This document shows, one piece after another, positions 2,369 through 57,971 of a stretch of 64,000 bases of DNA. The position numbers and the translations under genes were made by a program. Below the pieces are notes generated by a model. That model did not search any database. It was not told where the DNA came from and saw nothing but the letters and a program-made list of their open reading frames with translations. The DNA lies in the IMG/VR virus record IMGVR_UViG_3300009431_000003. One strand, 5' to 3'. How positions within the stretch are numbered: the stretch's first letter is position 1; each line of letters begins with the position of its first letter. This DNA is from a virus.

Positions 2369-3531
2369 AGGTCGAGCCCCGCAAGCTCTTCCCTGACTCG
2401 GAGCTTAAACCACTGATAGTGAGTATATAGCTCCATAAATAAAATAGAAGATATCCGCTCAATCTCAGAAAACTTCTTTTTCAGTTTATCCTCATCAATC
2501 TCATGCTGCCCTTCCGAGCCAATCGCCGTCGGATTTGTAAATCCCCTATCATTAATTGTTTCCAAGCCAAAAGCAAGTTCATACTTTTGAACGAGCTGTT
2601 GATAATCAAGCCGGCCAGCCGGAGCAGTATCCGCTACTCTTCCAGTAATAAAATGGTCCTCTCCCGTATACAACGTCCGAAAGGTTGCATTAAATTTCTT
2701 TCCGGAATCAAGAGGAACAATTTGATTTACCTTACCTTCAAGAAGGAGCCCTTCAATCTCTAGTTTTGGGCACCTTCTTCGTACCAGTTCCCGCCTTTCC
2801 GGGTTACCATAAATACCGTGGGCACGAGTAATAGGATCAACAATATCATCCGGCAAGTCATAACCAAAACGCATTTTAGCGTGAACACGTTTCCTTAAGT
2901 CCGTATCAGCCAATCTCTTTTCGGTCTGAGTGAGCTCTGTAGCAGCAAAAGAGTCTTCAATTGATCGCTCAAAATCCTCTTCTTCCAGAACAGAGCTTTT
3001 CTTCTCTTCCAGCTCTGGCTCCAAATCTGCCACAAGGGGCTTTTTAGTTGGCTCCGCCTCTTTATTAGTGGAGGCAGCAATTGCTTCATCCGCTAAAGCT
3101 TCTTGTACCACATCATCAAAAGTAATATCAGTATCCGGCATGAGATCGTCTGTAACCTGCATACTCTCAGGAGGAGGTTCTTGTTGCTTAGTATTTTTCT
3201 TAAACTGATCTTGTACCTTAAAATACGCAGCACCCATACCCATAGGCACTTCACCAGACTGTATCTTCTGTTGTAGTTCTTCTGGTTTCATAGTCTGAAG
3301 CAGTCCCTGATCTCGAACTTGCTGTCCTCCAGCCCCCTTGCCTAAATCAATACTTGGGGCTTGTTCTGGCCGATTTCTCAAAATCGGAGTACCTTCACCC
3401 CTTTGCCGTTGAAGTTCAACAACCCAATCCTTTTCCCCGCCAGAGGCTTTTCCTTGTGACAATCTTTGATTAATCTCAAGGGGGGTCTCTCCGAGCTGAA
3501 CTGTGCTTTTTTTAGGTCCTTTTCCTGGCAT
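2356..3531 (-). CDS. putative tail assembly chaperone (G-like) with long low-complexity N-terminus
   Basis: C-terminal FRTL...Y-x-WF-x-x-RV region; ends CTG GGA AAT GGA TAG with an X XXY YYZ slippery site as in lambda G/GT. Confidence 0.7.
   Translation of the reverse strand: MPGKGPKKSTVQLGETPLEINQRLSQGKASGGEKDWVVELQRQRGEGTPILRNRPEQAPSIDLGKGAGGQQVRDQGLLQTMKPEELQQKIQSGEVPMGMGAAYFKVQDQFKKNTKQQEPPPESMQVTDDLMPDTDITFDDVVQEALADEAIAASTNKEAEPTKKPLVADLEPELEEKKSSVLEEEDFERSIEDSFAATELTQTEKRLADTDLRKRVHAKMRFGYDLPDDIVDPITRAHGIYGNPERRELVRRRCPKLEIEGLLLEGKVNQIVPLDSGKKFNATFRTLYTGEDHFITGRVADTAPAGRLDYQQLVQKYELAFGLETINDRGFTNPTAIGSEGQHEIDEDKLKKKFSEIERISSILFMELYTHYQWFKLRVREELAGLDLGNG
2362..2368 (-). promoter_or_regulatory. 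programmed -1 ribosomal frameshift site G GGA AAU
   Basis: canonical slippery heptamer one codon before the stop; -1 frame open for 136 codons. Confidence 0.75.
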
Positions 3532-5062: not shown

Positions 5063-5644
5063 CTAATAGCCTCCCTGTGGAGGATTTGAAGGGTCAGTAT
5101 CAATATCCCAAGGCAGTGGCCATATCCCTTTCTCGTATACTTCCGCGGTTCTATGTACTCCATTTTGCCAAGGAGTAGTTTTAGCAATTGTAGGCGCCAG
5201 GCTTTGTATAAATCCTTCCCAAGCACTCTTTGCTGATGAATAAGTGGACATAATATAAGTTAATGAGGCATATAATCTACCTAATTCCTCTTCTACAAAA
5301 ATTGGGGGAAGCTTCCAGCGGGTAATCATATTAGCCAGGTCCTCAAGCTCTTCCGCAATACAAGCAAACGCTCTTTGTGCAGAGTCTGGAAAAGTAGGGT
5401 CTGCGGCAGCAGCACTAAAATGAAGTACTGCCACATTAATTTCTGTAACCATGTCTGTATAATCTTCGTCTGATCGTTCTGTATATTTTTCTATCCAAGG
5501 AGCTATTTCGTCAGAAAAAACAGTTAGTTGCTCAACTAAAAGGTCCAACTTCGCCTGATAGTCCACCTCTTCAATAACCTTAACAGCTGTTTGCTCGAAA
5601 GCTTCCTTGCCTTCTCCTCTGGCTCTATCATATAAATAGGACAT
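5063..5644 (-). CDS. hypothetical helical protein
   Basis: GGAGG RBS, packed. Confidence 0.7.
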   Translation of the reverse strand: MSYLYDRARGEGKEAFEQTAVKVIEEVDYQAKLDLLVEQLTVFSDEIAPWIEKYTERSDEDYTDMVTEINVAVLHFSAAAADPTFPDSAQRAFACIAEELEDLANMITRWKLPPIFVEEELGRLYASLTYIMSTYSSAKSAWEGFIQSLAPTIAKTTPWQNGVHRTAEVYEKGIWPLPWDIDTDPSNPPQGGY

Positions 5645-6241
5645 TTATACCTCCTTTGGGACATCCACCCTAAAATCCAGAATGATGTCTTGATCTGCCG
5701 GAGCGGTTTGCCATTCTTCCGCAAAGACTGTAAGCGCCTTCGGGAACGTACTGGGTAACGCTAATGAGAGAAACAAACCCCCATAAAAATGATTCTCAAT
5801 AGTAGGTATAGGTACAAAAAACTCAAACACATAAGTACTCAATGGAGCAATATCAATAGAAGGAGCAACAGGGATCTCCCCATACCCAAAGGCCCCCACA
5901 GGTAACCTATTTGCACTTCTATTTCCAGAAGTTACATACCAGGGCGCCTTCCCTTGATACGCAGCATAATCCATACCAGGCCAAAAAGTAACTATCTGAG
6001 TCTCTTGATTATTTACAATTGTAAGAGAGTAGATAAGGCCTCGCATATCCGGAGGAACAGAAGTCCCAGGGTATGAAGGAATTATTTTAGAGATATCAGC
6101 CTCCTCACGATGCTTCTTATAATTAAACCGAGCAACGGCGGAGCTTCCGGCCTTCCGCCCATAATAATCAAATGTCTTTCTGAGATTACCTATCAGAGTA
6201 CCAAACCAAGTAATCTGCCCAAGGTTAGTTTTATTTGACAC
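5645..6241 (-). CDS. hypothetical protein (possible virion protein)
   Basis: packed, beta-rich, late-type strand. Confidence 0.7.
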   Translation of the reverse strand: MSNKTNLGQITWFGTLIGNLRKTFDYYGRKAGSSAVARFNYKKHREEADISKIIPSYPGTSVPPDMRGLIYSLTIVNNQETQIVTFWPGMDYAAYQGKAPWYVTSGNRSANRLPVGAFGYGEIPVAPSIDIAPLSTYVFEFFVPIPTIENHFYGGLFLSLALPSTFPKALTVFAEEWQTAPADQDIILDFRVDVPKEV

Positions 6242-8247: not shown

Positions 8248-8257
8248 CATAAGAGTA
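8248..8257 (+). promoter_or_regulatory. recurrent CATAAGAGTA motif (putative phage promoter)
   Basis: exact copies at 8248, 23799, 46615, 51503, 57962, all + strand, at or near gene boundaries upstream of + genes. Confidence 0.55.
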
Positions 8258-17365: not shown

Positions 17366-20300
17366 CTATTTTTTATGACAAAAAAATATATAATCTTTCA
17401 TCAGGCCATATTTCTTTACATCATTAGGACGGAAAATATCAGAAGTTTTCAATACTTGTACAACAAAACCGACAGACTCTAAACGATCAACAATATCTAA
17501 ACCATAAGATCTGACATGCTCTGGATTAGCAAAATACTCGGCTGACTTCTTAAAACTTATACCCTCAACAGTTACTTCCTCTAAAATCGGAACCATAATA
17601 ACTGCCCAACTACCGATTTTAAGTACCCGATGTAATTCTCTCATAGCTTGTATATCATCATTAATGTGCTCCAACAAATGAACAGAAATAATAGCATCGA
17701 AGGAATTAAGGTCTTTAGGAATTGAAGTTATATCCACCCTTCTTAATTCTCCAGGGACCACATTAGAAGTAATATACTCAAGCTTAGAAAAAGAACTAAG
17801 TGCTTTCTTAATTCCTGCATTCGGGGAAAAATGCAAAACTTTGTATTTATTTTTAAAAAGTTTAGTTTTCCTTTTTAAAAATAAATACAACATACGATGG
17901 CGCTCTAAGGAGCCGCACTTGGGGCATTGAGCATCCTTCCTATTCACAGAACCAAAAGAACTAAAAGAACCCGTAAATGAGCATACCGGACAGTTCTTAT
18001 TGTCCTTACTTTCTTGCTCTGATATTTTGGGTTCCCAAATGTAAGTAGGGGTGTGGGCATAAGGACCTATAGCAGAATATTCCCATTCTTTTAAAAACTG
18101 ATCTATTTCTTTTTTATGTTTTACAGTATGACATTCACAGACAATAATGGGCTGTGAAGCTTTAATAATTTTTCTTGCCCCTTTAAGAGCAGCAAGTTCA
18201 TGCCCTTCTATATCAAGCTTAATAATTGAAACACTATCTTGCTTCACAAGAGAATCTAGCCGAAGATACCCCACCCCAAAAGTACCAACAGTAGAAAGCG
18301 TTTTGGTTCCTCCTACATTATTCGGATCGATATCATCAATTCCTCGTATTGGGGTATGTTTAGTTGATAAGCCCGCTGCTGCACAAATCACGCTGAATGT
18401 CTTGCTGAATAAATTATTAGTCTTAAGGTTATGATGAAGAATACTCGCCACCCCAGGAACTGCTTCAATAGAGATAACTTTATCTGAAAAGCATTCATTA
18501 AGAAAAAAGACTGCATGATTACCTATATTTCCTCCTACATCCAAATACGTGCCTTTTTTATTATAGCTCTTTAGCTTTTCAAGCAAATCCAGTTCATAAA
18601 ACTTGTTACTTGAACTAAGTCTTTGGTACAAAATATCTGACTCTGTTGCACAAAATATTTTATAAGTATGCTCTTTATACTTACAAACTGCACCAAGGCT
18701 AAAATTTACACCGCCCACAATATCCTCACTTTCAAATACACAATTCTCTTCATTTTCTATATAATTCTCTTCCCGAACAAACAATTCGTTTCCTGTCCCT
18801 GTATTTAACTGCGATTGTGTGGTCAGATGCCGGATAAAAGAACGTGCAGGGGCATAAAAATAATAATTTCCATTCATCATCCTATCAGCTATCTGAGGAA
18901 ATACTCCAGAACTTAAATACGGTTTATTATTCCATCTGGAACTAGCCACAGGAAATATCCTATGATCCAACAGTTTTGGTAATCGAGTAGCTGGGGCAAG
19001 CCACCCTTGCCCATCCATCCAATAATGTCGAACCACTACCTCATCACTAATCACCACTTCTTCCGCCAACTTCCGCCTCCAAGGATTAGTTCGAAAGCGT
19101 ACGTCACGAAACATACTCAAAGCCACTGCTTTTTTGTCGTGAGAAACTTTTTGCCATAAATTAAGCGCCTTCTCAAATATTCTATCACATAATTGAACAT
19201 CGTCTTGAATAACAGAAAGATACTTTGCTCCAGAATTTTTGAAAGACCTTAAAATTGCATCATGTATTCTCCAAAAGCCTGGTCGCCCATTTCGGGCAGA
19301 CAATTTACGATAGGACACAAACGAATATTTATTTACCAAATTAATTACCTCAGGGTATGGAAGCATCGAACAGTCATCAATAACCTCTATTTGCAAAGAG
19401 CACCCCCTTCCTTGCTCACGTATAATTGACCTAAGAGCTTTCTCTGCAAGCTCTGGACGATTATATGTAGTCAGATATACTTTTATGCTAGGCTGGTTAA
19501 TCTTGGTCTGGGGCGTCTTAGTCTCTATTATTGTGGAGTCATTCCATAATTGATGAAAGTCTATACTCTCGTAAACTTGTTCTGGGGTAATAGCTCTCAT
19601 ACAAGAAGCTTTATCGCAACCGATTTTACCTTTTGCTCCATAACACGGGAACCTCTTACAGCCTCCACCAGTACTCTGTATACAAAGAATTCTGCCGTTT
19701 GCAGGACTACACTTAGACCATAAAGTAGAACCAAATAATGCTACACCAGGAACCCCAACAGCATCAGCAACATGCATAAGGCCAGTATCATTACCTATAG
19801 CAAAATCACACATAGATAAAGCATCTGCTGTCTGATCCAGTGTTAATTTCCCTGCTGTATTTATACCTCGGTTTCCTAAAGTACGGCAAAGCCTATCACC
19901 ATACGCAAACTCTTTCTTGTCTCCAAAATAAATAAAGCGAACATCATGCTCTTGCAAAATTATTTTAGTTAGCTTTATCATATACTCTATCGGCCATAAT
20001 TTATGTGACCAGCTAGGATGACAACCATTATAAACAGCTATAGTACGCTTATCTCTCTTAACTATATTATTTGCATTTCTCGTCTTTATTGTTGAAGGGT
20101 ACTTAACAGTCCCTGGAATAATATCTAAATATGCCTGAGTTTCCGTTATTCCTAAAGCTTTCCAGTTTACCATAGGCTGCATAATCTGAGTAACATTATG
20201 CTTAGGTAAATTTTTTGGACTAAAACACCAAAGGGCAATTACCCGAGAAACATCTTGAGCCAATTTTGTTGTAGGAGATAGCTCTTTGACAGGCCACTTT

Positions 20301-22339
20301 GATATTGACTTAATTGCCGGTATTCTTGGATCATTATATTTTATATAAATTATTGGATTATTTAGATTCTGAATAAAAGGAGTTGCTTGAATAAAATTCC
20401 CGATACCATTATTAAAAAATACAGCATCTGAACTCAGTACCTTAACATCTTTATAGTTATACTTATAAAACCTACTAAACCGTTTGGAAATATCCCTTAG
20501 AGCTTTGGTAGGTTGATATGTTTTTGTAAGTTGTCCTGAATGCATACGATACTTACAAAATACCTGATCTACTAAAGCAAAAGTATACCCATTTAAAGAT
20601 AACTTACACCACAGATCAAAATCCTGTGCCTCTTGATTTGGTTGATCACTGTAATAGCCACCCACACGTACTACCGCATCTTTTCTAAAACATACAGTAG
20701 AGTGCCCAATACACCATCCCTGCTCCCACATAAACTTAGACTGATCTACTTTAAAAGAGGTACGGCGCACGTTGCCATACCCAACCGTCGAATTACTCTT
20801 ACTATCTATATAATCCATTTGACCAGACAACACTGATACTTCTTTATGCTTAAGCAAATACTCAACTTGAAATCTTAAACGATCAGGGACCATAACATCA
20901 TCAGAGTCTAAAACAGCGATACACTTACTATTACAGCCCATTAGAGCACTATTTCTAGCAGCAACAATCCCCTCATGCTTTAACCAAATAATCTTTACCC
21001 AAGAAAGTCTCTCATATTTTTTTAAAACCTCTATCGTCCCTGGATCAGTCGAACCATCATCAGCAACAACTAACTGTTTAATAACTCCTTTTTGTTTTTC
21101 TATAGAAGCTATAGCCTCTTCTAAAAAGCGTGACTTTGTATTATACACCACCATTAAAACAGCTACTTCATAGCTTTTTTGTGTTTTCGGTTTTGTCTTG
21201 AACCTATTAAGTACTTTTTTCTTAGGGAGCATACTTTCTTTACGTCGCTGTGTTTTTCTTTTTATTGCAGCAGGTATTCCTGATTTCTGTTTAGTATTTA
21301 CTTTTAAGCTTTTTGCTTCCCCAATCACATGAACAAATCTTTTAGTCATCGCAGCCACAGAATGCTCCTTATCCGCAAAAGTAAATGCCTGTTCCGCAAG
21401 GGTTTTTCTTACATAAGGGTTACGTAAGTCCCTCATTACATTACCAAACTCTTTCAAAGAATCAAAATACTTTATAGCGTCGTTTGGTATTTCCAAGTGA
21501 TAGACACTTGGGCCGCATACTTTCCTGGCCAGAACAGGCACCCCAGACCGCATAGCCTCAACAATAGTCTGTGGCCAGCCTTCCCAGTCAGAATAAACAA
21601 TATGAACATCCATTTTAGCAAAAAGAGCTGCCCGGTCCTCTACATCTACAATTAATTCTATGCCAGGTGCTCCTTTTATCTCTTTTTTTAGTGCCTTAAA
21701 ATAACCTGCAGCATATGGAGCAAAGCCGCCAGCAACAAGTAGACGATCCCCAGATTTCCTAGCCCGCTTAAAAGCCCTTACAATTTCCACAGCTTTCTTA
21801 CGTGGCTCGAAGTTTCCAAAATACCCAATAGTAAGATTTCTGCCAGTACCTATTTTCGGAGAACAACGGAGATCTGTAGATGAGAGAATCGAGACACAAT
21901 TTGTCTTTCTATATTTTTTCTCATATGCAGCAACTATACCTTTTCCAACTCCGATTACAGTATGAATTTTATCTTTACCGTAATCAATTGCCTTGTATCC
22001 CCAAGCATCCATTGTATGAGCAACATAAATATAGCTTACGCCCAGATGAGGACTAAGAACACTTGGAATATTCGCTGGGCCGGCAAACACTACAATATCC
22101 GCACGAAAGGATCGGACAAAGGAAATAAGGGCACTATCCTTTGTTCCTAAATATTTAACAGGAGAATTTCCCGCCCGCCGCTGGTATACTTTAAGCGCTT
22201 CATTATAGACTTTGCCGCGCCACCCAACATAAGCTTTCCTGGCAGAATCTCCAAGAGAATTGCCTAGAGAAATTAAGTGACCGAAAACCCCGCCCCAATG
22301 AAGCCCGGGATATACAAAAACAATTCTTGGTTTATTCAT
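17366..22339 (-). CDS. multi-domain glycosyltransferase/methyltransferase: GT4 + GT2 + GT9 + GT2-like + FkbM MTase + Zn-ribbon/class I SAM MTase (ORF track start 22375)
   Basis: GT4 EGWPQTIVEAMRSGVPV; GT2 DDGSTD/LDSDD; GT9 GIGNFI..GNDTGLMHVADAVGVP; TTYNRP..IDDCS; FkbM LDVGGNIGNH..KLDIEGHE; CPKCGSLERHR..HLLEHI. Confidence 0.9.
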   Translation of the reverse strand: MNKPRIVFVYPGLHWGGVFGHLISLGNSLGDSARKAYVGWRGKVYNEALKVYQRRAGNSPVKYLGTKDSALISFVRSFRADIVVFAGPANIPSVLSPHLGVSYIYVAHTMDAWGYKAIDYGKDKIHTVIGVGKGIVAAYEKKYRKTNCVSILSSTDLRCSPKIGTGRNLTIGYFGNFEPRKKAVEIVRAFKRARKSGDRLLVAGGFAPYAAGYFKALKKEIKGAPGIELIVDVEDRAALFAKMDVHIVYSDWEGWPQTIVEAMRSGVPVLARKVCGPSVYHLEIPNDAIKYFDSLKEFGNVMRDLRNPYVRKTLAEQAFTFADKEHSVAAMTKRFVHVIGEAKSLKVNTKQKSGIPAAIKRKTQRRKESMLPKKKVLNRFKTKPKTQKSYEVAVLMVVYNTKSRFLEEAIASIEKQKGVIKQLVVADDGSTDPGTIEVLKKYERLSWVKIIWLKHEGIVAARNSALMGCNSKCIAVLDSDDVMVPDRLRFQVEYLLKHKEVSVLSGQMDYIDSKSNSTVGYGNVRRTSFKVDQSKFMWEQGWCIGHSTVCFRKDAVVRVGGYYSDQPNQEAQDFDLWCKLSLNGYTFALVDQVFCKYRMHSGQLTKTYQPTKALRDISKRFSRFYKYNYKDVKVLSSDAVFFNNGIGNFIQATPFIQNLNNPIIYIKYNDPRIPAIKSISKWPVKELSPTTKLAQDVSRVIALWCFSPKNLPKHNVTQIMQPMVNWKALGITETQAYLDIIPGTVKYPSTIKTRNANNIVKRDKRTIAVYNGCHPSWSHKLWPIEYMIKLTKIILQEHDVRFIYFGDKKEFAYGDRLCRTLGNRGINTAGKLTLDQTADALSMCDFAIGNDTGLMHVADAVGVPGVALFGSTLWSKCSPANGRILCIQSTGGGCKRFPCYGAKGKIGCDKASCMRAITPEQVYESIDFHQLWNDSTIIETKTPQTKINQPSIKVYLTTYNRPELAEKALRSIIREQGRGCSLQIEVIDDCSMLPYPEVINLVNKYSFVSYRKLSARNGRPGFWRIHDAILRSFKNSGAKYLSVIQDDVQLCDRIFEKALNLWQKVSHDKKAVALSMFRDVRFRTNPWRRKLAEEVVISDEVVVRHYWMDGQGWLAPATRLPKLLDHRIFPVASSRWNNKPYLSSGVFPQIADRMMNGNYYFYAPARSFIRHLTTQSQLNTGTGNELFVREENYIENEENCVFESEDIVGGVNFSLGAVCKYKEHTYKIFCATESDILYQRLSSSNKFYELDLLEKLKSYNKKGTYLDVGGNIGNHAVFFLNECFSDKVISIEAVPGVASILHHNLKTNNLFSKTFSVICAAAGLSTKHTPIRGIDDIDPNNVGGTKTLSTVGTFGVGYLRLDSLVKQDSVSIIKLDIEGHELAALKGARKIIKASQPIIVCECHTVKHKKEIDQFLKEWEYSAIGPYAHTPTYIWEPKISEQESKDNKNCPVCSFTGSFSSFGSVNRKDAQCPKCGSLERHRMLYLFLKRKTKLFKNKYKVLHFSPNAGIKKALSSFSKLEYITSNVVPGELRRVDITSIPKDLNSFDAIISVHLLEHINDDIQAMRELHRVLKIGSWAVIMVPILEEVTVEGISFKKSAEYFANPEHVRSYGLDIVDRLESVGFVVQVLKTSDIFRPNDVKKYGLMKDYIFFCHKK

Positions 22340-22386
22340 AAATATTGTACTATCACCATAAGCTACTAATTCCAAGGAGGACTATC

Positions 22387-55057: not shown

Positions 55058-55096
55058 TTATGTGAAAATAATGAGTATTTTCACATAAGAGGAGTG
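55058..55096 (+). promoter_or_regulatory. 13-bp palindrome overlapping a CATAAGAG-type motif upstream of the RNA island
   Basis: TTATGTGAAAATA-ATGAG-TATTTTCACATAA; CATAAGAGGAGTG at 55084. Confidence 0.5.
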
Positions 55097-55152
55097 ATCA
55101 AGAACTTTCCTTTTAGGAGGAAAGGCATGACCTTCTTGATCTACTTGTCACA

Positions 55153-55330
55153 AGTTTAAGTTGGAAAGTTGGCTTAGAGGCAGCCATCTTTTAAAGAGTG
55201 AATCGCCTCGATCTCAATCATCGTGACCGATGGATACTTTCTGTAATGTGTCAGGTCCTTGACTTAGGAAAGTATCGGGATCGCCAAGGACAGGTGGATT
55301 CTTTGGCGTAGTAGCACACCAACTTAAACT
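55153..55330 (+). ncRNA. structured RNA mimicking 23S rRNA H43/H44 (uL11-binding GTPase-associated centre) with ~105-nt insert
   Basis: perfect 12-bp closing helix 55153-64/55319-30; GTTGGCTTAGAGGCAGCCATC matches E. coli 23S 1059-1079 at 20/21 (from memory); TTTAAAGAGT...GCGTAGTAGCACA matches H44. Confidence 0.75.
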
Positions 55331-55471
55331 ATTTTAAGAGGAGAAACTTATGTGTTTTAAAATGGATCAGTGCAGAAGAGAAATGGAGGAATCTCTCGCA
55401 CTACACGACCATGATGATTGGATTCGTTATGGAAAGTTATCTCCTCAGCAGAAACATGCAAAGACAGTTTT

Positions 55472-55808
55472 GGGCATGGTTTTGGATTCGACAGAGGAGC
55501 TTGAGAGCGACTCCAGCAAGCCAGGGAGCATCCGGCCCTGTAAAAAGATGCACATTTTTAATTGCCGAACCGCAATTAGCTAACGCTGCGTAGAGCAGCG
55601 CGTTGTACCGGCTGACTCCGATACGTCGGCTACAGCGTTACATATCGGATAGTCTTGATGGCTGATCGTATCAAGGGAATTCCAGATCACCAACTCTCTG
55701 AGTATCCTGTCCATGGGAGACAATGAAGAGTATAAAACATGGACTAAGCTTGTAGACGGACCGTAAACACTTTTCTGGACTGGGGTTCGACTCCCCACAT
55801 GTCCACCA
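55472..55808 (+). ncRNA. ssrA: tmRNA; tag peptide (A)AEPQLANAA* at 55564-55593
   Basis: acceptor GGGCATG/CATGTCC-ACCA with G3.U70; GGATTCGAC; T-arm GGGGTTCGACTCCCC; TAATT before the GCC resume codon. Confidence 0.92.
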
Positions 55809-55813
55809 ATTAT

Positions 55814-55981
55814 GGCGAGGTAGTTCAAGTAGGAACGTCTAATGTATAGAAGAACCTGGAATATTTTATACATTGTCCTCCTCAAGAATTAGGAGAGATC
55901 TTCTGCAGAGAGAACTCGATAATAAAAACAGAATACTGGGCTTGCTGCTCAGAGATGCTGGTTCAAATCCGGTCCTCGCTG
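55814..55981 (+). ncRNA. tRNA-shaped RNA with ~105-nt multibranch insert replacing the anticodon loop
   Basis: acceptor GGCGAGG/CCTCGCT, D-arm GTTC/GAAC, T-arm GCTGG-TTCAAAT-CCGGT; no readable anticodon, no CCA. Confidence 0.65.
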
Positions 55982-56037
55982 TATTATTTTGAAAACAGTA
56001 TGCAACTGCCCGGAATAGGTAGTTGTCGTTGGCAGCC

Positions 56038-56099
56038 GGCCCGAGGGGGGCCTTCCAAGATACTTAGTCCCACAACCCCTCTCGGGCCGCGTTTAATTT
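56038..56099 (+). terminator. GC-rich hairpin with U-rich tail
   Basis: GGCCCGAG-GGGG / CCCC-T-CTCGGGCC then GCGTTTAATTTT. Confidence 0.45.
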
Positions 56100-56129
56100 T
56101 GTTGTTATATTTTTTATTAAGGAGAAGCT

Positions 56130-56903
56130 ATGAAAGAGAATCAGTTACATGTCCTCCTTGCTGTTGAAGGAGACTTGCAGGGACAAGCAAAAAGAGTAAT
56201 AAAGGAAGCGTATGATACCTTTAAGTCCAAGCTGCATCTGTTCGATGGGCTGGATAAGGTTCTTCATATGTTTGATGAAAAGCGGCAACAAGAAGAATCT
56301 GCCGGCAGGCAACACAGTGACGTTGCCACAACAGTCGAGGATAAGTTAAGATATATCAAAGGAGCAGTCGGCAACTATTGGGACGCTGTCCTCCAAAAGG
56401 AAAACGCAAATCAGGATGCCCAGGCTGATTTGGTAATCGACGGAAAGACGATCGCCCCTGGGTTACCCGCCACATTCCTTCTTGGAATGGAAAGCAAGGT
56501 AAAAGCCTTGAGAGAAGTTTTCGAGGCTATTCCGACCAGGGATCCGAATATCTCTTGGATCGCCGCAGACGACATCGGTCCTGGTGTGTTCAAGTCTGTC
56601 GTGCCGATTGATAGAACCAAGACTGAGACTATCGTTGAGCCGGTTGTGTTGTATCACGCAACCAAGGACCACCCCGCACAGGTCAAAGAGGGATCAAAGG
56701 TAGTAACCATCGGCAAAACTTCCGAAACAAAGTATACCTCTCGCTGGACTCCTCTTCAGAAGAGCAATGCTTTGGCTCGGGTAGATAAATTAATCCGTTC
56801 TTTGAAGAAGGCGCGGCAAAAAGCCAACCAAACAGAGATTAAAGATGCTCATATAGCCAATGACATCTTTAAATACCTTCTGGAAGGCAAATTGCCGGGA
56901 TAA
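56130..56903 (+). CDS. conserved uncharacterised coiled-coil protein adjacent to a tRNA-like ncRNA
   Basis: AAGGAG RBS; LHVLLAVE, LPATFLLGME, VLYHATKDHPAQV, RVDKLIRSLKKARQKAN. Confidence 0.85.
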   Translation: MKENQLHVLLAVEGDLQGQAKRVIKEAYDTFKSKLHLFDGLDKVLHMFDEKRQQEESAGRQHSDVATTVEDKLRYIKGAVGNYWDAVLQKENANQDAQADLVIDGKTIAPGLPATFLLGMESKVKALREVFEAIPTRDPNISWIAADDIGPGVFKSVVPIDRTKTETIVEPVVLYHATKDHPAQVKEGSKVVTIGKTSETKYTSRWTPLQKSNALARVDKLIRSLKKARQKANQTEIKDAHIANDIFKYLLEGKLPG

Positions 56904-56912
56904 GAATACAAG

Positions 56913-57169
56913 GTAGGTGTAACCTTGTTGTTGGTGTCATAGAATACTGGGTACAGTCCGAGGCGGGAGCCCATGAAAGACGATGCCCTATATTCGGAAT
57001 TGATGTCTGCTGTTAAAGTTTTGCACCTACAGCTTCATCGCAACTCAATGTCAAGCGATGCACAATGCTCAAAATTACATCCTGGTCGGAGGTTCAAATC
57101 CTCCCTCGTTCTCCATTATGAACGAGTAGCTCAGCGGTAGAGCAAGGGTTTTCAAACTGAAGCAATGTG
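56913..57169 (+). ncRNA. structured RNA containing a circularly permuted tRNA module (T-arm > acceptor > D-arm; YrlA/Y-RNA-like)
   Basis: ATCCT(57079)-GGTC-GGAGG TTCAAAT CCTCC-CTCGTTC-T-CCA-TTAT-GAACGAG-TA-GCTC AGCGGTA GAGC-A-AGGGT-TT TCA AA; outer helix 57061-71/57158-69; upstream helix 56913-22/57021-30. Confidence 0.75.
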
Positions 57170-57198
57170 GTTTATGCAGAGACAGAAGAGGCAACCCC

Positions 57199-57276
57199 GA
57201 TTTTATGGCTCAATTGGATAGAGCTGCGGACTATAAAATCCGTGAGTTACGGGTTCAACTCCCGTTAAGATCACCA
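57199..57276 (+). tRNA. tRNA with non-canonical 8-nt anticodon loop (CTATAAAA); identity unassigned
   Basis: acceptor GATTTTA/TAAGATC-ACCA; D GCTC/GAGC; AC stem GCGGA/TCCGT; T ACGGG-TTCAACT-CCCGT. Confidence 0.75.
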
Positions 57277-57313
57277 GGGGGCCAGGTGAGGATACATCCT
57301 GGCCCCCACTTTT
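57277..57313 (+). terminator. intrinsic terminator
   Basis: GGGGGCCAGG / CCTGGCCCCC perfect 10 bp then ACTTTT. Confidence 0.75.
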
Positions 57314-57332
57314 AGGCTTACAAGGAGTACTT

Positions 57333-57590
57333 TTGAATAAACCAGTATTGAAGATGCTGGCATTGATTGTTATGCTTGATACGTACGAGTTAATATACGA
57401 TCACTTGCCGGAAAATAAACGAAACCTAACGACAGAAGAAGGAATGCAGATCGACAAAGAAAGTATGCCTTCAGTTAATTATCTACGAGATAAAGGGCTT
57501 ATCAAAACTAAACACATTAAAAATAATAACTATATCTGTACAATAACCCCTAAAGGCTGGAAAGCCTTTGGGAGGGAAATGGCAAAATGA
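57333..57590 (+). CDS. hypothetical protein, possible winged HTH
   Basis: AAGGAG RBS; YLRDKGLIK...CTITPKGW. Confidence 0.6.
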   Translation: MNKPVLKMLALIVMLDTYELIYDHLPENKRNLTTEEGMQIDKESMPSVNYLRDKGLIKTKHIKNNNYICTITPKGWKAFGREMAK

Positions 57591-57863
57591 AAATTTTACG
57601 GCAGCTTTTAAAAGTCCTTTGCCAGGGAAGGTCATTGGGTCCATGCTGAGAAGCGGCGCATAACAGAGTAGGTTTTCCAATGAATTTTTAAAGATAAGAA
57701 GGGAGGGGATGGAGGTCCAGGCGCCCTAGAAAAATCCTTCCGTAAACCTACGGTCCTATGGTGGAAATGGAGCTATACCCATAGGAAGCGTAAAAGGGAG
57801 TGACGACTCTCCGATATTTTTAAGTTAGGCGACGCAGGTAGCCTTGGCTCCAGACCTGCTTAT

Positions 57864-57939
57864 GGGGGATTAGCTCAGTTGGAAGAGCGTGGCGCTTGCA
57901 TCGCCGAGGTCATCGGTTCGATCCCGATATCTTCCACCA
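57864..57939 (+). tRNA. trnA: tRNA-Ala(UGC)
   Basis: GGGGGAT/ATCTTCC-ACCA with G3.U70; anticodon loop CT TGC AT; T-loop TTCGATC. Confidence 0.95.
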
Positions 57940-57961
57940 ACAAAGAAGAGACGGAATGTTA

Positions 57962-57971
57962 CATAAGAGTA
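57962..57971 (+). promoter_or_regulatory. CATAAGAGTA motif
   Basis: exact copy after tRNA-Ala, upstream of 58030. Confidence 0.5.

Follow-up and report, generated by a model that had tools for sequence, protein, structure and literature searches.

Phage transfer RNA (tRNA) arrays are usually read as helpers of codon usage or as spare parts against anticodon nucleases. Huge phages carry transfer-messenger RNA (tmRNA) and tRNAs, and T4 has the RNAs called 'species 1 and 2'. Y RNAs of the YrlA type, in which a tRNA mimic is paired with a dedicated protein, Ro60, offer a second point of comparison; phage Y RNAs are known, and the YrlA of M. smegmatis, alone among Y RNAs in having an acceptor stem of 7 bp, is cleaved by RNase P and receives a CCA (PMC4201824). 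The locus described here is a 2.9-kb stretch (positions 55058-57971) of the phage-like metagenome contig IMGVR_UViG_3300009431_000003, of which 64,000 nucleotides (nt), the window, were analysed. The stretch contains a gene of the protein family DUF7873 followed by an RNA with a permuted tRNA-like head, a stand-alone copy of the GTPase-associated centre (GAC) of 23S ribosomal RNA (rRNA), a tmRNA, a tRNA-like shell with a large insert, a tRNA with an 8-nt anticodon loop, and a canonical tRNA-Ala(UGC). It is read here, with fair confidence, as a phage tRNA-array locus made up of independently inherited modules that imitate or serve the translation apparatus. The array, which belongs to a phage of ~180 kb, is dominated by mimics of the translation machinery rather than by decoders. 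The DUF7873-associated RNA and the GAC copy represent widespread phage families; neither permuted tRNA-like phage RNAs of this type nor stand-alone GAC mimics were found in Rfam 15 or in the literature searched, where the name DUF7873 was not found either.

The linkage between the DUF7873 gene and its RNA was established across many phages. A single-sequence search of viral contigs with the DUF7873 protein gave no match and an alignment query was needed; with an alignment of 33 DUF7873 proteins, 80 viral loci were fetched. A covariance model of the permuted head (R1), for which 63 copies were used and scores of at least 44 bits accepted, matched the window at 57072-57152 with 75.9 bits, 170 nt after the DUF7873 stop codon. 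Since the window sequence was included in the R1 seed, the independent evidence is that in 88 of the 90 sources a head scoring 44 bits or more lies 3' of the DUF7873 gene, in the same orientation. A simple pairing scan recovered the permuted module in ~62 of 83 loci, also on the same strand and mostly 120-500 nt after the stop codon. Covariation was found in four of four helices of the head. The anticodon-like stem, which was not used in selecting the copies, is 66% paired, compared with ~40% when slid, and all of its pairs (5/5) covary. In the window, the acceptor strands are perfectly complementary, the D-arm is canonical, and the flanks AUCCU/AGGGU form the anticodon-like stem and run on into a longer helix. 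In 50 of 58 copies, N-CCA stands directly after the acceptor 3' strand, and the loop before the acceptor 5' strand usually ends in UAU (UAU/G context); the context UUAU/G also occurs 5' of the tRNA-Ala and of the tRNA shell in the window. The weaker R1 matches are junctions between neighbouring tRNA genes, a source of false positives of which Chen et al. 2014 (PMC4201824) had warned. Two apparent heads upstream of DUF7873 (L081 and L083) were rejected on these grounds, being junctions of adjacent tRNA genes whose acceptor stems resemble each other.

The 5' domain of the RNA shows a regularity of its own. In 57 loci, the domain contains a hairpin loop composed of [A/U]G[C/U]NU units, in which a 6-nt spacing was observed 39 times, compared with 3.1 expected. 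Arrays of this kind are characteristic of the binding sites of oligomeric RNA-binding proteins such as TRAP and HutP. Tandem permuted heads on a 6-nt repeat track are present in FBKp24, phiRSL1, GodonK, and Racecar, an arrangement that the window does not share. DUF7873 and the permuted module were identified together in six cultured phages, RHph_TM30 (Rhizobium), FBKp24 (Klebsiella), phiRSL1 (Ralstonia), GodonK (Gordonia), D502 (Vibrio), and Racecar (Arthrobacter), where the DUF7873 gene usually lies inside a tRNA cluster and the RNA in unannotated gaps; these carriers make the question of the RNA directly testable. The second permuted head of the Klebsiella phage vB_KpM_FBKp24 (L087) overlaps, in its T-arm, a deposited 'tRNA-Sup-TTA' (3012-3091), which is probably a misannotation and not a suppressor tRNA.

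The DUF7873 protein has 637 homologues, located in phage-like contigs. No match was found among PHROGs, PADLOC, or PDB sequence profiles. The AF2 model (pLDDT 92.7) consists of a helical bundle with long beta-hairpins. Comparisons of the fold with PDB (Foldseek), VIA wide, and BFVD returned generic helical bundles only (Z at most 8.2, TM at most 0.25), which is not proof of a new fold, and matches in the ESM Atlas were confined to DUF7873 clusters. Prediction with two copies gave an extensive symmetric dimer (ipSAE 0.74, compared with 0.00 for the best control), with a contact agreement between runs of at least 95% and a partner pLDDT of at least 88. Among proteins of solved structure, 20 of 30 same-chain pairs and 1 of 23 single chains reached the mark used for dimers; the models thus support self-association of DUF7873, at the level of prediction.

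The GAC element corresponds to H43 and H44 of 23S rRNA (E. coli rrlH positions 1055-1102, within the compared segment 1051-1108). Its closing helix encloses, in order, GUUGGCUUAGAGGCAGCCAUCUUUUAAAGAG, the insert, and GGCGUAGUAGCACAC. By our own reading, ~28 of 31 positions agree with E. coli 23S 1055-1088, and ~12 of 14 in the H44 loop region; BLAST reported 93% over 30 nt. The pattern GGCTTAGANGCAGCCATCNTTTAAAGA matches 83 stretches in viral contigs, 79 of which are short stand-alone elements without flanking rRNA similarity. Most of these (64/79) have tRNA genes on the same strand as neighbours, and the element often begins ~20 nt behind a tRNA. The closing helices of the family covary, varying in sequence and keeping their complementarity. 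Judged by its sequence, the window element belongs with them: it resembles H43/H44, has a closing helix of its own, and lies outside an rRNA gene, in a tRNA array.

The modules are not inherited together in the loci examined. The GAC motif was found in none of 83 DUF7873 loci and in none of five near-complete DUF7873 phage genomes; among the 79 GAC loci, DUF7873 is present in three and tmRNA in one. The tmRNA is the commonest companion of DUF7873, in some phages only: it was found near DUF7873 in L003, L045, and L074, and in three of five complete carrier genomes, in two of which it lies 2-2.5 kb from DUF7873. Specific to the window is that all the modules stand side by side within 2.9 kb, and that its DUF7873 RNA combines one permuted head with a normal-topology tRNA behind it. 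The first-pass annotation, a model's reading of the letters without database searches, had described this stretch as a dense island of translation-apparatus mimics and had interpreted it as one coordinated module of decoys and ribosome rescue. The observation was partly confirmed and is for the most part correct, and the interpretation is partly supported, whereas the single decoy-and-rescue module is not supported, having failed the test of co-conservation. Because of this independent inheritance, the parts call for dissection one by one rather than as one operon. The coordinates of the features are given in Table 1.

Table 1. Features of the stretch 55058-57971, all on the + strand, with the evidence for each
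Feature	Position	Evidence and remarks
CATAAGAGGA, copy of the motif CATAAGAG(TA)	55084-55093	Upstream of the array
Stand-alone GAC-like RNA (23S H43/H44)	55153-55332	Closing helix 12 bp; ~105-nt insert in H44 equivalent; fold z -3.5
77-amino-acid open reading frame	55350-55583	List of reading frames; strong ribosome-binding site; called as a gene in JGI records; last 112 nt overlap the tmRNA gene
tmRNA, standard one-piece	55472-55808	ARAGORN; Rfam RF00023, 132.5 bits (threshold 47), full length 1-374
tRNA-like shell, normal arm order	55814-55980	Sequence, fold, and pairing scan; 167 nt; acceptor stem, short D-arm, T-arm
Long G+C-rich hairpin, then U-rich tract UUUAAUUUUGUUGUU, terminator-like	56035-56091	Fold z -2.5; ends just 5' of the DUF7873 ribosome-binding site
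DUF7873 gene, 257 amino acids	56130-56903	Pfam PF25283, E 8.6e-65, 219.3 bits (cut-off 27), residues 4-252
DUF7873-associated RNA	56904-57170	5' hairpin domain, closing stem, permuted tRNA-like head
P1 of the 5' hairpin domain, containing UAGAAUACUGGG	56913-56922 / 57021-57030	Pairing
Permuted head: anticodon-like stem	57079-57083 / 57145-57149
Permuted head: T-arm	57088-57104
Permuted head: acceptor 3' strand	57105-57111
Permuted head: U-CCA-UUAU loop	57112-57119
Permuted head: acceptor 5' strand	57120-57126
Permuted head: D-arm	57129-57143
tRNA with 8-nt anticodon loop CUAUAAAA, encoded CCA	57199-57276	ARAGORN; Rfam, 55.6 bits; all stems paired
G+C-rich hairpin, then ACUUUU, terminator-like	57277-57307	Read from the sequence; not flagged by the consensus scan
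Small open reading frame, 85 amino acids from TTG (78 per JGI)	57333-57590	Family-less
Spacer before tRNA-Ala	57591-57863	273 nt; exceptional structure unsupported
tRNA-Ala(UGC), canonical, G3:U70, encoded CCA	57864-57939	ARAGORN, Rfam
CATAAGAGTA, copy of the motif CATAAGAG(TA)	57962-57971	Downstream of the array

ARAGORN and Rfam concur on three genes of the stretch, the tmRNA, the 8-nt-loop tRNA, and the tRNA-Ala(UGC). The tmRNA encodes the tag AEPQLANAA (followed by a stop codon) and has the acceptor GGGCAUG/CAUGUCC with G3:U70 and an encoded CCA; score, alanine identity, tag frame, and CCA end, all read from the sequence, are those of RF00023. Together with the GAC copy as an rRNA-domain mimic, the shell as a tRNA body with a giant insert, and the permuted tRNA (the module 57088-57143, whose flanks close the anticodon-like stem), the tmRNA and the plainly normal tRNA-Ala had been recognized in the first-pass annotation, and each was recovered by the analysis. 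Other parts of that annotation fared less well. The match it drew between tRNA-Ala and the Ala-rich tmRNA tag carries no information. The spacer before tRNA-Ala, thought to be structured, folds no better than shuffled sequence (z 0.07; 103 of 200 shuffles fold as well). The permuted tRNA has no anticodon loop and, therefore, cannot be an anticodon-nuclease decoy. The 8-nt loop is real in this sample but polymorphic, and the motif said to bracket the island is present on both sides but is not specific to it (see below). In another DUF7873 phage (L003), T-arm and acceptor fragments with two GGTTCGATTCCC-type arms lie directly 3' of the tmRNA (5610-5800), where no tool calls a tRNA. The 77-amino-acid reading frame, which has no Pfam or PHROG match, stops within the tmRNA tag region in a different frame; it is probably spurious, and its status as a gene is doubtful. 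The small reading frames near DUF7873 had no match among PHROGs, PADLOC, or PDB sequence profiles.

The tRNA shell carries an insert of ~95 nt 3' of its D-arm; 5' of its T-arm lies a possible anticodon-like hairpin with the loop CUUGCUG. The shell contains CAGAAUACUGGG, lacks an encoded CCA, and was not called as a tRNA by ARAGORN or Rfam. A tRNA with a group I intron was considered and rejected, the insert being ~95 nt long, located 3' of the D-arm instead of in the anticodon loop, and without an intron-family match in Rfam. Few counterparts of the shell exist elsewhere, and its position upstream of the DUF7873 gene is specific to the window, as is a 12-nt motif common to the shell and the 5' domain of the DUF7873 RNA. 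The core of this motif, the 11-mer AGAATACTGGG, occurs exactly at 55930, in the insert of the shell, and at 56941, in the 5' domain, and nowhere else in the 64 kb; both sites, which the first-pass annotation had noticed, read YAGAAUACUGGG. By a rough estimate, the odds of a chance 11-mer common to two ~170-nt stretches are ~0.007. An unpermuted tRNA-like shell with an insert, with a leucine-tRNA-like D-arm (GGCGGAAUAAGUAGACGC), was also seen directly 3' of the DUF7873 gene in L001 (4765-4900).

The tRNA with the 8-nt anticodon loop occupies a recurrent position, since a tRNA or tRNA-like gene follows the permuted head after ~50-60 nt in roughly half of the loci. These genes are varied, often with unusual anticodons (AUA, UAU, GAU, AUU, AUG, UUA, or odd loops) and A/U-rich acceptor stems; the acceptor stem of those in L002 and L003 is broken. 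In the window, this normal-topology tRNA takes the place of a second head. In a further sample of the same phage (L177), the loop is one base shorter, at 7 nt (CUAUAAA, with the anticodon AUA), which makes the extra base a population variant; a second change, G57226A, turns G.U into A-U. The loop change (57235) and G57226A are two of only four differences between the samples across 6.7 kb, which suggests that this anticodon arm changes rapidly or is under relaxed constraint.

The motif CATAAGAG(TA) occurs eight times in 64 kb (at 8248, 23799, 36985, 46615, 51503, 55084, 57962, and 62648), compared with 2.8 copies expected; every copy is on the + strand, most are intergenic, and six of the eight read CATAAGAGTA. 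This distribution marks it as a window-wide signal and not as a bracket specific to the island, probably a phage promoter or RNA-processing signal. The two copies that flank the array are consistent with one rightward transcription region, and the location of the array on one strand between two copies makes co-transcription plausible. The two terminator-like hairpins, in turn, point to a separate unit, made up of the DUF7873 gene, its RNA, and the tRNA behind it and presumably closed by the second hairpin. Tracts of UUGUUGUU stand just 5' of the DUF7873 ribosome-binding site (56099-56107) and just 3' of the stop codon (56925-56933), and other loci have short repeats of their own before the ribosome-binding site, such as ACTTAAACTTAAACTTAGGAGG in L011, as an unquantified observation. 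Such tracts may be an autoregulatory site. The UUGUUGUU tract itself was rejected as a family rule, being present before the ribosome-binding site in 5 of 74 loci, compared with 4.6% in controls.

The remainder of the window is that of a phage-like metagenome contig, with many family-less small reading frames, an endolysin, a DEAD/Helicase_C_2 helicase, and a DUF932 protein. The longest contig with the same DUF7873 protein has 182,587 bp, and two further samples hold nearly identical copies of this phage. The tRNA-Ala is its only DNA similarity to cultured phages. On the - strand (17366-22375), a 1669-amino-acid reading frame combines glycosyltransferase domains (GT1/GT4, GT2, and GT9) with FkbM and other methyltransferase domains, and is unusually large for a phage sugar-modifying protein.

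The way in which the locus might work, including the processing of its RNAs, their binding by protein, and all functions of the array elements, can be proposed from the sequences. Rightward transcription of the array would probably yield a single precursor or a small number of them, from which host tRNA-processing enzymes would release separate stable RNAs. Four kinds of module, each with its own inheritance, would make up the locus. The first is the standard tmRNA with the single ordinary decoder, tRNA-Ala. The second is the free GAC copy, which would bind, off the ribosome, one of the molecules that normally recognize the GAC, be it uL11, a translation GTPase, or a factor or toxin that targets this site; such a copy suggests that phages manipulate the factor-binding site of the ribosome or shield it from attack. 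The third would comprise the DUF7873 gene, its partner RNA, and the tRNA with the odd, polymorphic anticodon loop. The core of the partner RNA can be viewed as an inside-out tRNA, in which a loop seals the acceptor end and the break in the chain lies at the anticodon stem. RNase P would cut before the acceptor 5' strand, and 3' trimming would stop at the encoded CCA. Given the processing of M. smegmatis YrlA, the encoded N-CCA, and the UAU/G context, conversion into a two-piece, CCA-ended form can reasonably be expected by analogy. The product would be an anticodon-less tRNA mimic held by the DUF7873 dimer through the 5' domain, in a particle similar in style to Ro60/Y RNA that would not depend on Ro60. 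The fourth module is the unpermuted tRNA shell, possibly a second RNA partner of DUF7873.

Several observations weigh against this modular picture. In several other phages the tmRNA lies 0.5-2.5 kb from DUF7873, perhaps more than chance neighbours would; since all RNA genes of the carrier phages cluster in the array, this proximity is weak evidence of a functional tie. The arrangement of the present array on one strand, within 2.9 kb, and between two motif copies makes functional cooperation in this phage possible. For the DUF7873 RNA in particular, the hexamer track is weak in the window (3 matches), and the window has only one permuted head, whereas two are frequent in its relatives. The absence of a TROVE domain was recorded for 20 of the window's reading frames, in a contig that extends for another ~118 kb.

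A stronger form of cooperation is conceivable, and appears rather doubtful: a co-transcribed 'translation take-over' unit with at least two particles not described before. A DUF7873 dimer with two CCA-ended, anticodon-less, tRNA-shaped heads, matured by RNase P and 3' trimming, would engage those host enzymes or defence toxins for which the elbow and the acceptor end of a tRNA are the recognition sites; the free GAC copy would titrate uL11 or a factor or toxin directed at the GAC, and the tmRNA would clear the ribosomes stalled as a consequence. The related proposal of one coordinated operon for anti-defence and ribosome rescue, with decoys for nucleases and ribosome-directed toxins alongside trans-translation, is likewise unlikely. 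It draws on the compact same-strand arrangement between copies of a promoter-like motif, on the fact that every element imitates a translation component, on the nearness of tmRNA and DUF7873 in some other large phages, and on the 12-nt motif common to the tRNA shell and the DUF7873 RNA. However, the parts are not co-conserved, the permuted head has no anticodon loop with which to decoy an anticodon nuclease, the proteins near DUF7873 match no defence-system model (PADLOC), and the two hairpins suggest more than one transcription unit.

A further alternative holds that the permuted element is a bona fide YrlA Y RNA, with a phage or host Ro60 as its true partner and DUF7873 as a mere neighbour. 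The Rfam matches to YrlA are consistent, yet under the threshold of 69 bits, with 36.5 bits (E 1.4e-5) for the window and 32-47 bits for its relatives. One of the five near-complete carriers does encode TROVE: in the 358-kb IMG/VR contig G001 (L024, L084, and L085), DUF7873 and its RNA lie near 126 kb and Ro60/TROVE near 328 kb, ~200 kb apart, and R1 detects three YrlA-type RNAs adjoining the TROVE gene (329.5-330.1 kb). This cross-detection indicates that the head is shared with true YrlA-type Y RNAs. In contrast, TROVE is absent from the other four carriers, and the distribution of the DUF7873 RNAs is accordingly not that of Ro60, while the order of DUF7873 and then RNA is maintained in 88 of 90 sources from very different phages. 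The Ro60-binding motif GNCGAAN0-1G (PMC4201824) was not seen on the 5' strand in the window, L002, or L003, as inspected by eye only. A true YrlA dependent on Ro60 is considered improbable.

It is about as improbable that the RNA is a cis-acting 3'-end or stability element, in which cleavage by RNase P defines and protects the mRNA 3' end and no function is exerted in trans. The RNA begins right at the DUF7873 stop codon and has an encoded CCA in an RNase P-type context, and the repeat tracts before the ribosome-binding site in several loci would fit autoregulation. An end signal, however, would need neither a full tRNA elbow (D-loop GG and T-loop) nor so long and conserved a 5' domain with its hexamers; some phages have two heads, and in L001 the head lies ~840 nt after the DUF7873 gene, behind an HNH gene. 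Finally, decay of the odd tRNAs as pseudogenes of an eroding array, which the first-pass annotation had itself named as a way to be wrong, would suit the single plainly canonical tRNA left, the one-base homopolymer difference behind the 8-nt loop with two of four sample differences in that anticodon arm, and the scarcity of counterparts of the tRNA shell, but is highly improbable given compensatory changes in the permuted head across ~90 loci, a GAC family with a covarying closing helix, and an 8-nt-loop tRNA with every stem paired, where the second change re-establishes Watson-Crick pairing. The evidence supports the odd RNAs as real, selected elements that imitate parts of the translation apparatus.

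Comparison with known systems places the modular locus among phage tRNA arrays with tmRNA and extra stable RNAs, with which it shares a same-strand cluster of tRNA-type genes and small RNAs, small reading frames in between, and presumed processing from a precursor. It differs in that canonical decoders are a minority (one or two) and mimics the majority. The GAC element nearly reproduces H43 and the H44 loop of the 23S GTPase-associated centre (H42 tip, H43, and H44; E. coli 1051-1108), the binding site of uL11 and thiostrepton. Unlike its rRNA counterpart, it replaces H42 by a closing helix of its own, is ~180 nt long with its H44 insert, and lies among phage tRNA genes outside an rRNA gene. 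The permuted head differs from permuted tRNA genes of the Cyanidioschyzon type in its open-ended anticodon-like stem without an anticodon loop. Frameshift-suppressor tRNAs (+1) with 8-nt anticodon loops, such as those of the sufD type, are known. The 8-nt-loop tRNA of the window is like them an intact tRNA with one extra anticodon-loop base; its extra base, however, lies on the 3' side in a run of A, a 7-nt form exists in the same population, and no frameshift-dependent gene was identified, no +1 site having been sought.

The DUF7873 RNA resembles two-piece tmRNA (RF04321, RF01849-51; PMC11915505) in the succession of T-arm, acceptor 3' strand, CCA, loop, and acceptor 5' strand, and in the expected cleavage, by enzymes of tRNA processing, into two pieces held together by base pairs. 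It has A3-U70 instead of G3:U70 and a full D-arm, and no tag frame was found in it. Scores of the head with tmRNA models were 12.9 bits (cyano_tmRNA) in the window and ~25 bits (beta_tmRNA) in the cultured phages, and the tmRNA_permuted match of 19.8 bits in the window lies at the junction of tmRNA and tRNA shell, not at the head. With the YrlA Y RNAs (RF02553; PMC4201824), it has in common a T-arm, a loop-closed acceptor-like stem, and a D-arm on a longer stem, as well as a protein gene next to it; the 7-bp acceptor stem with CCA recalls M. smegmatis YrlA, and R1 also detects the RNAs beside a phage Ro60 gene. The DUF7873 RNAs differ in scoring below the Rfam threshold, in having DUF7873 and not TROVE as their neighbour, with Ro60 lacking in four of the five near-complete carriers, in a 5' domain with hexamer repeats, apparently in place of the Ro60-binding helix, and in the tRNA or tRNA-like gene that often follows. 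The DUF7873 RNA would thus extend the Y RNA idea, a tRNA mimic with a dedicated protein, to a partner other than Ro60.

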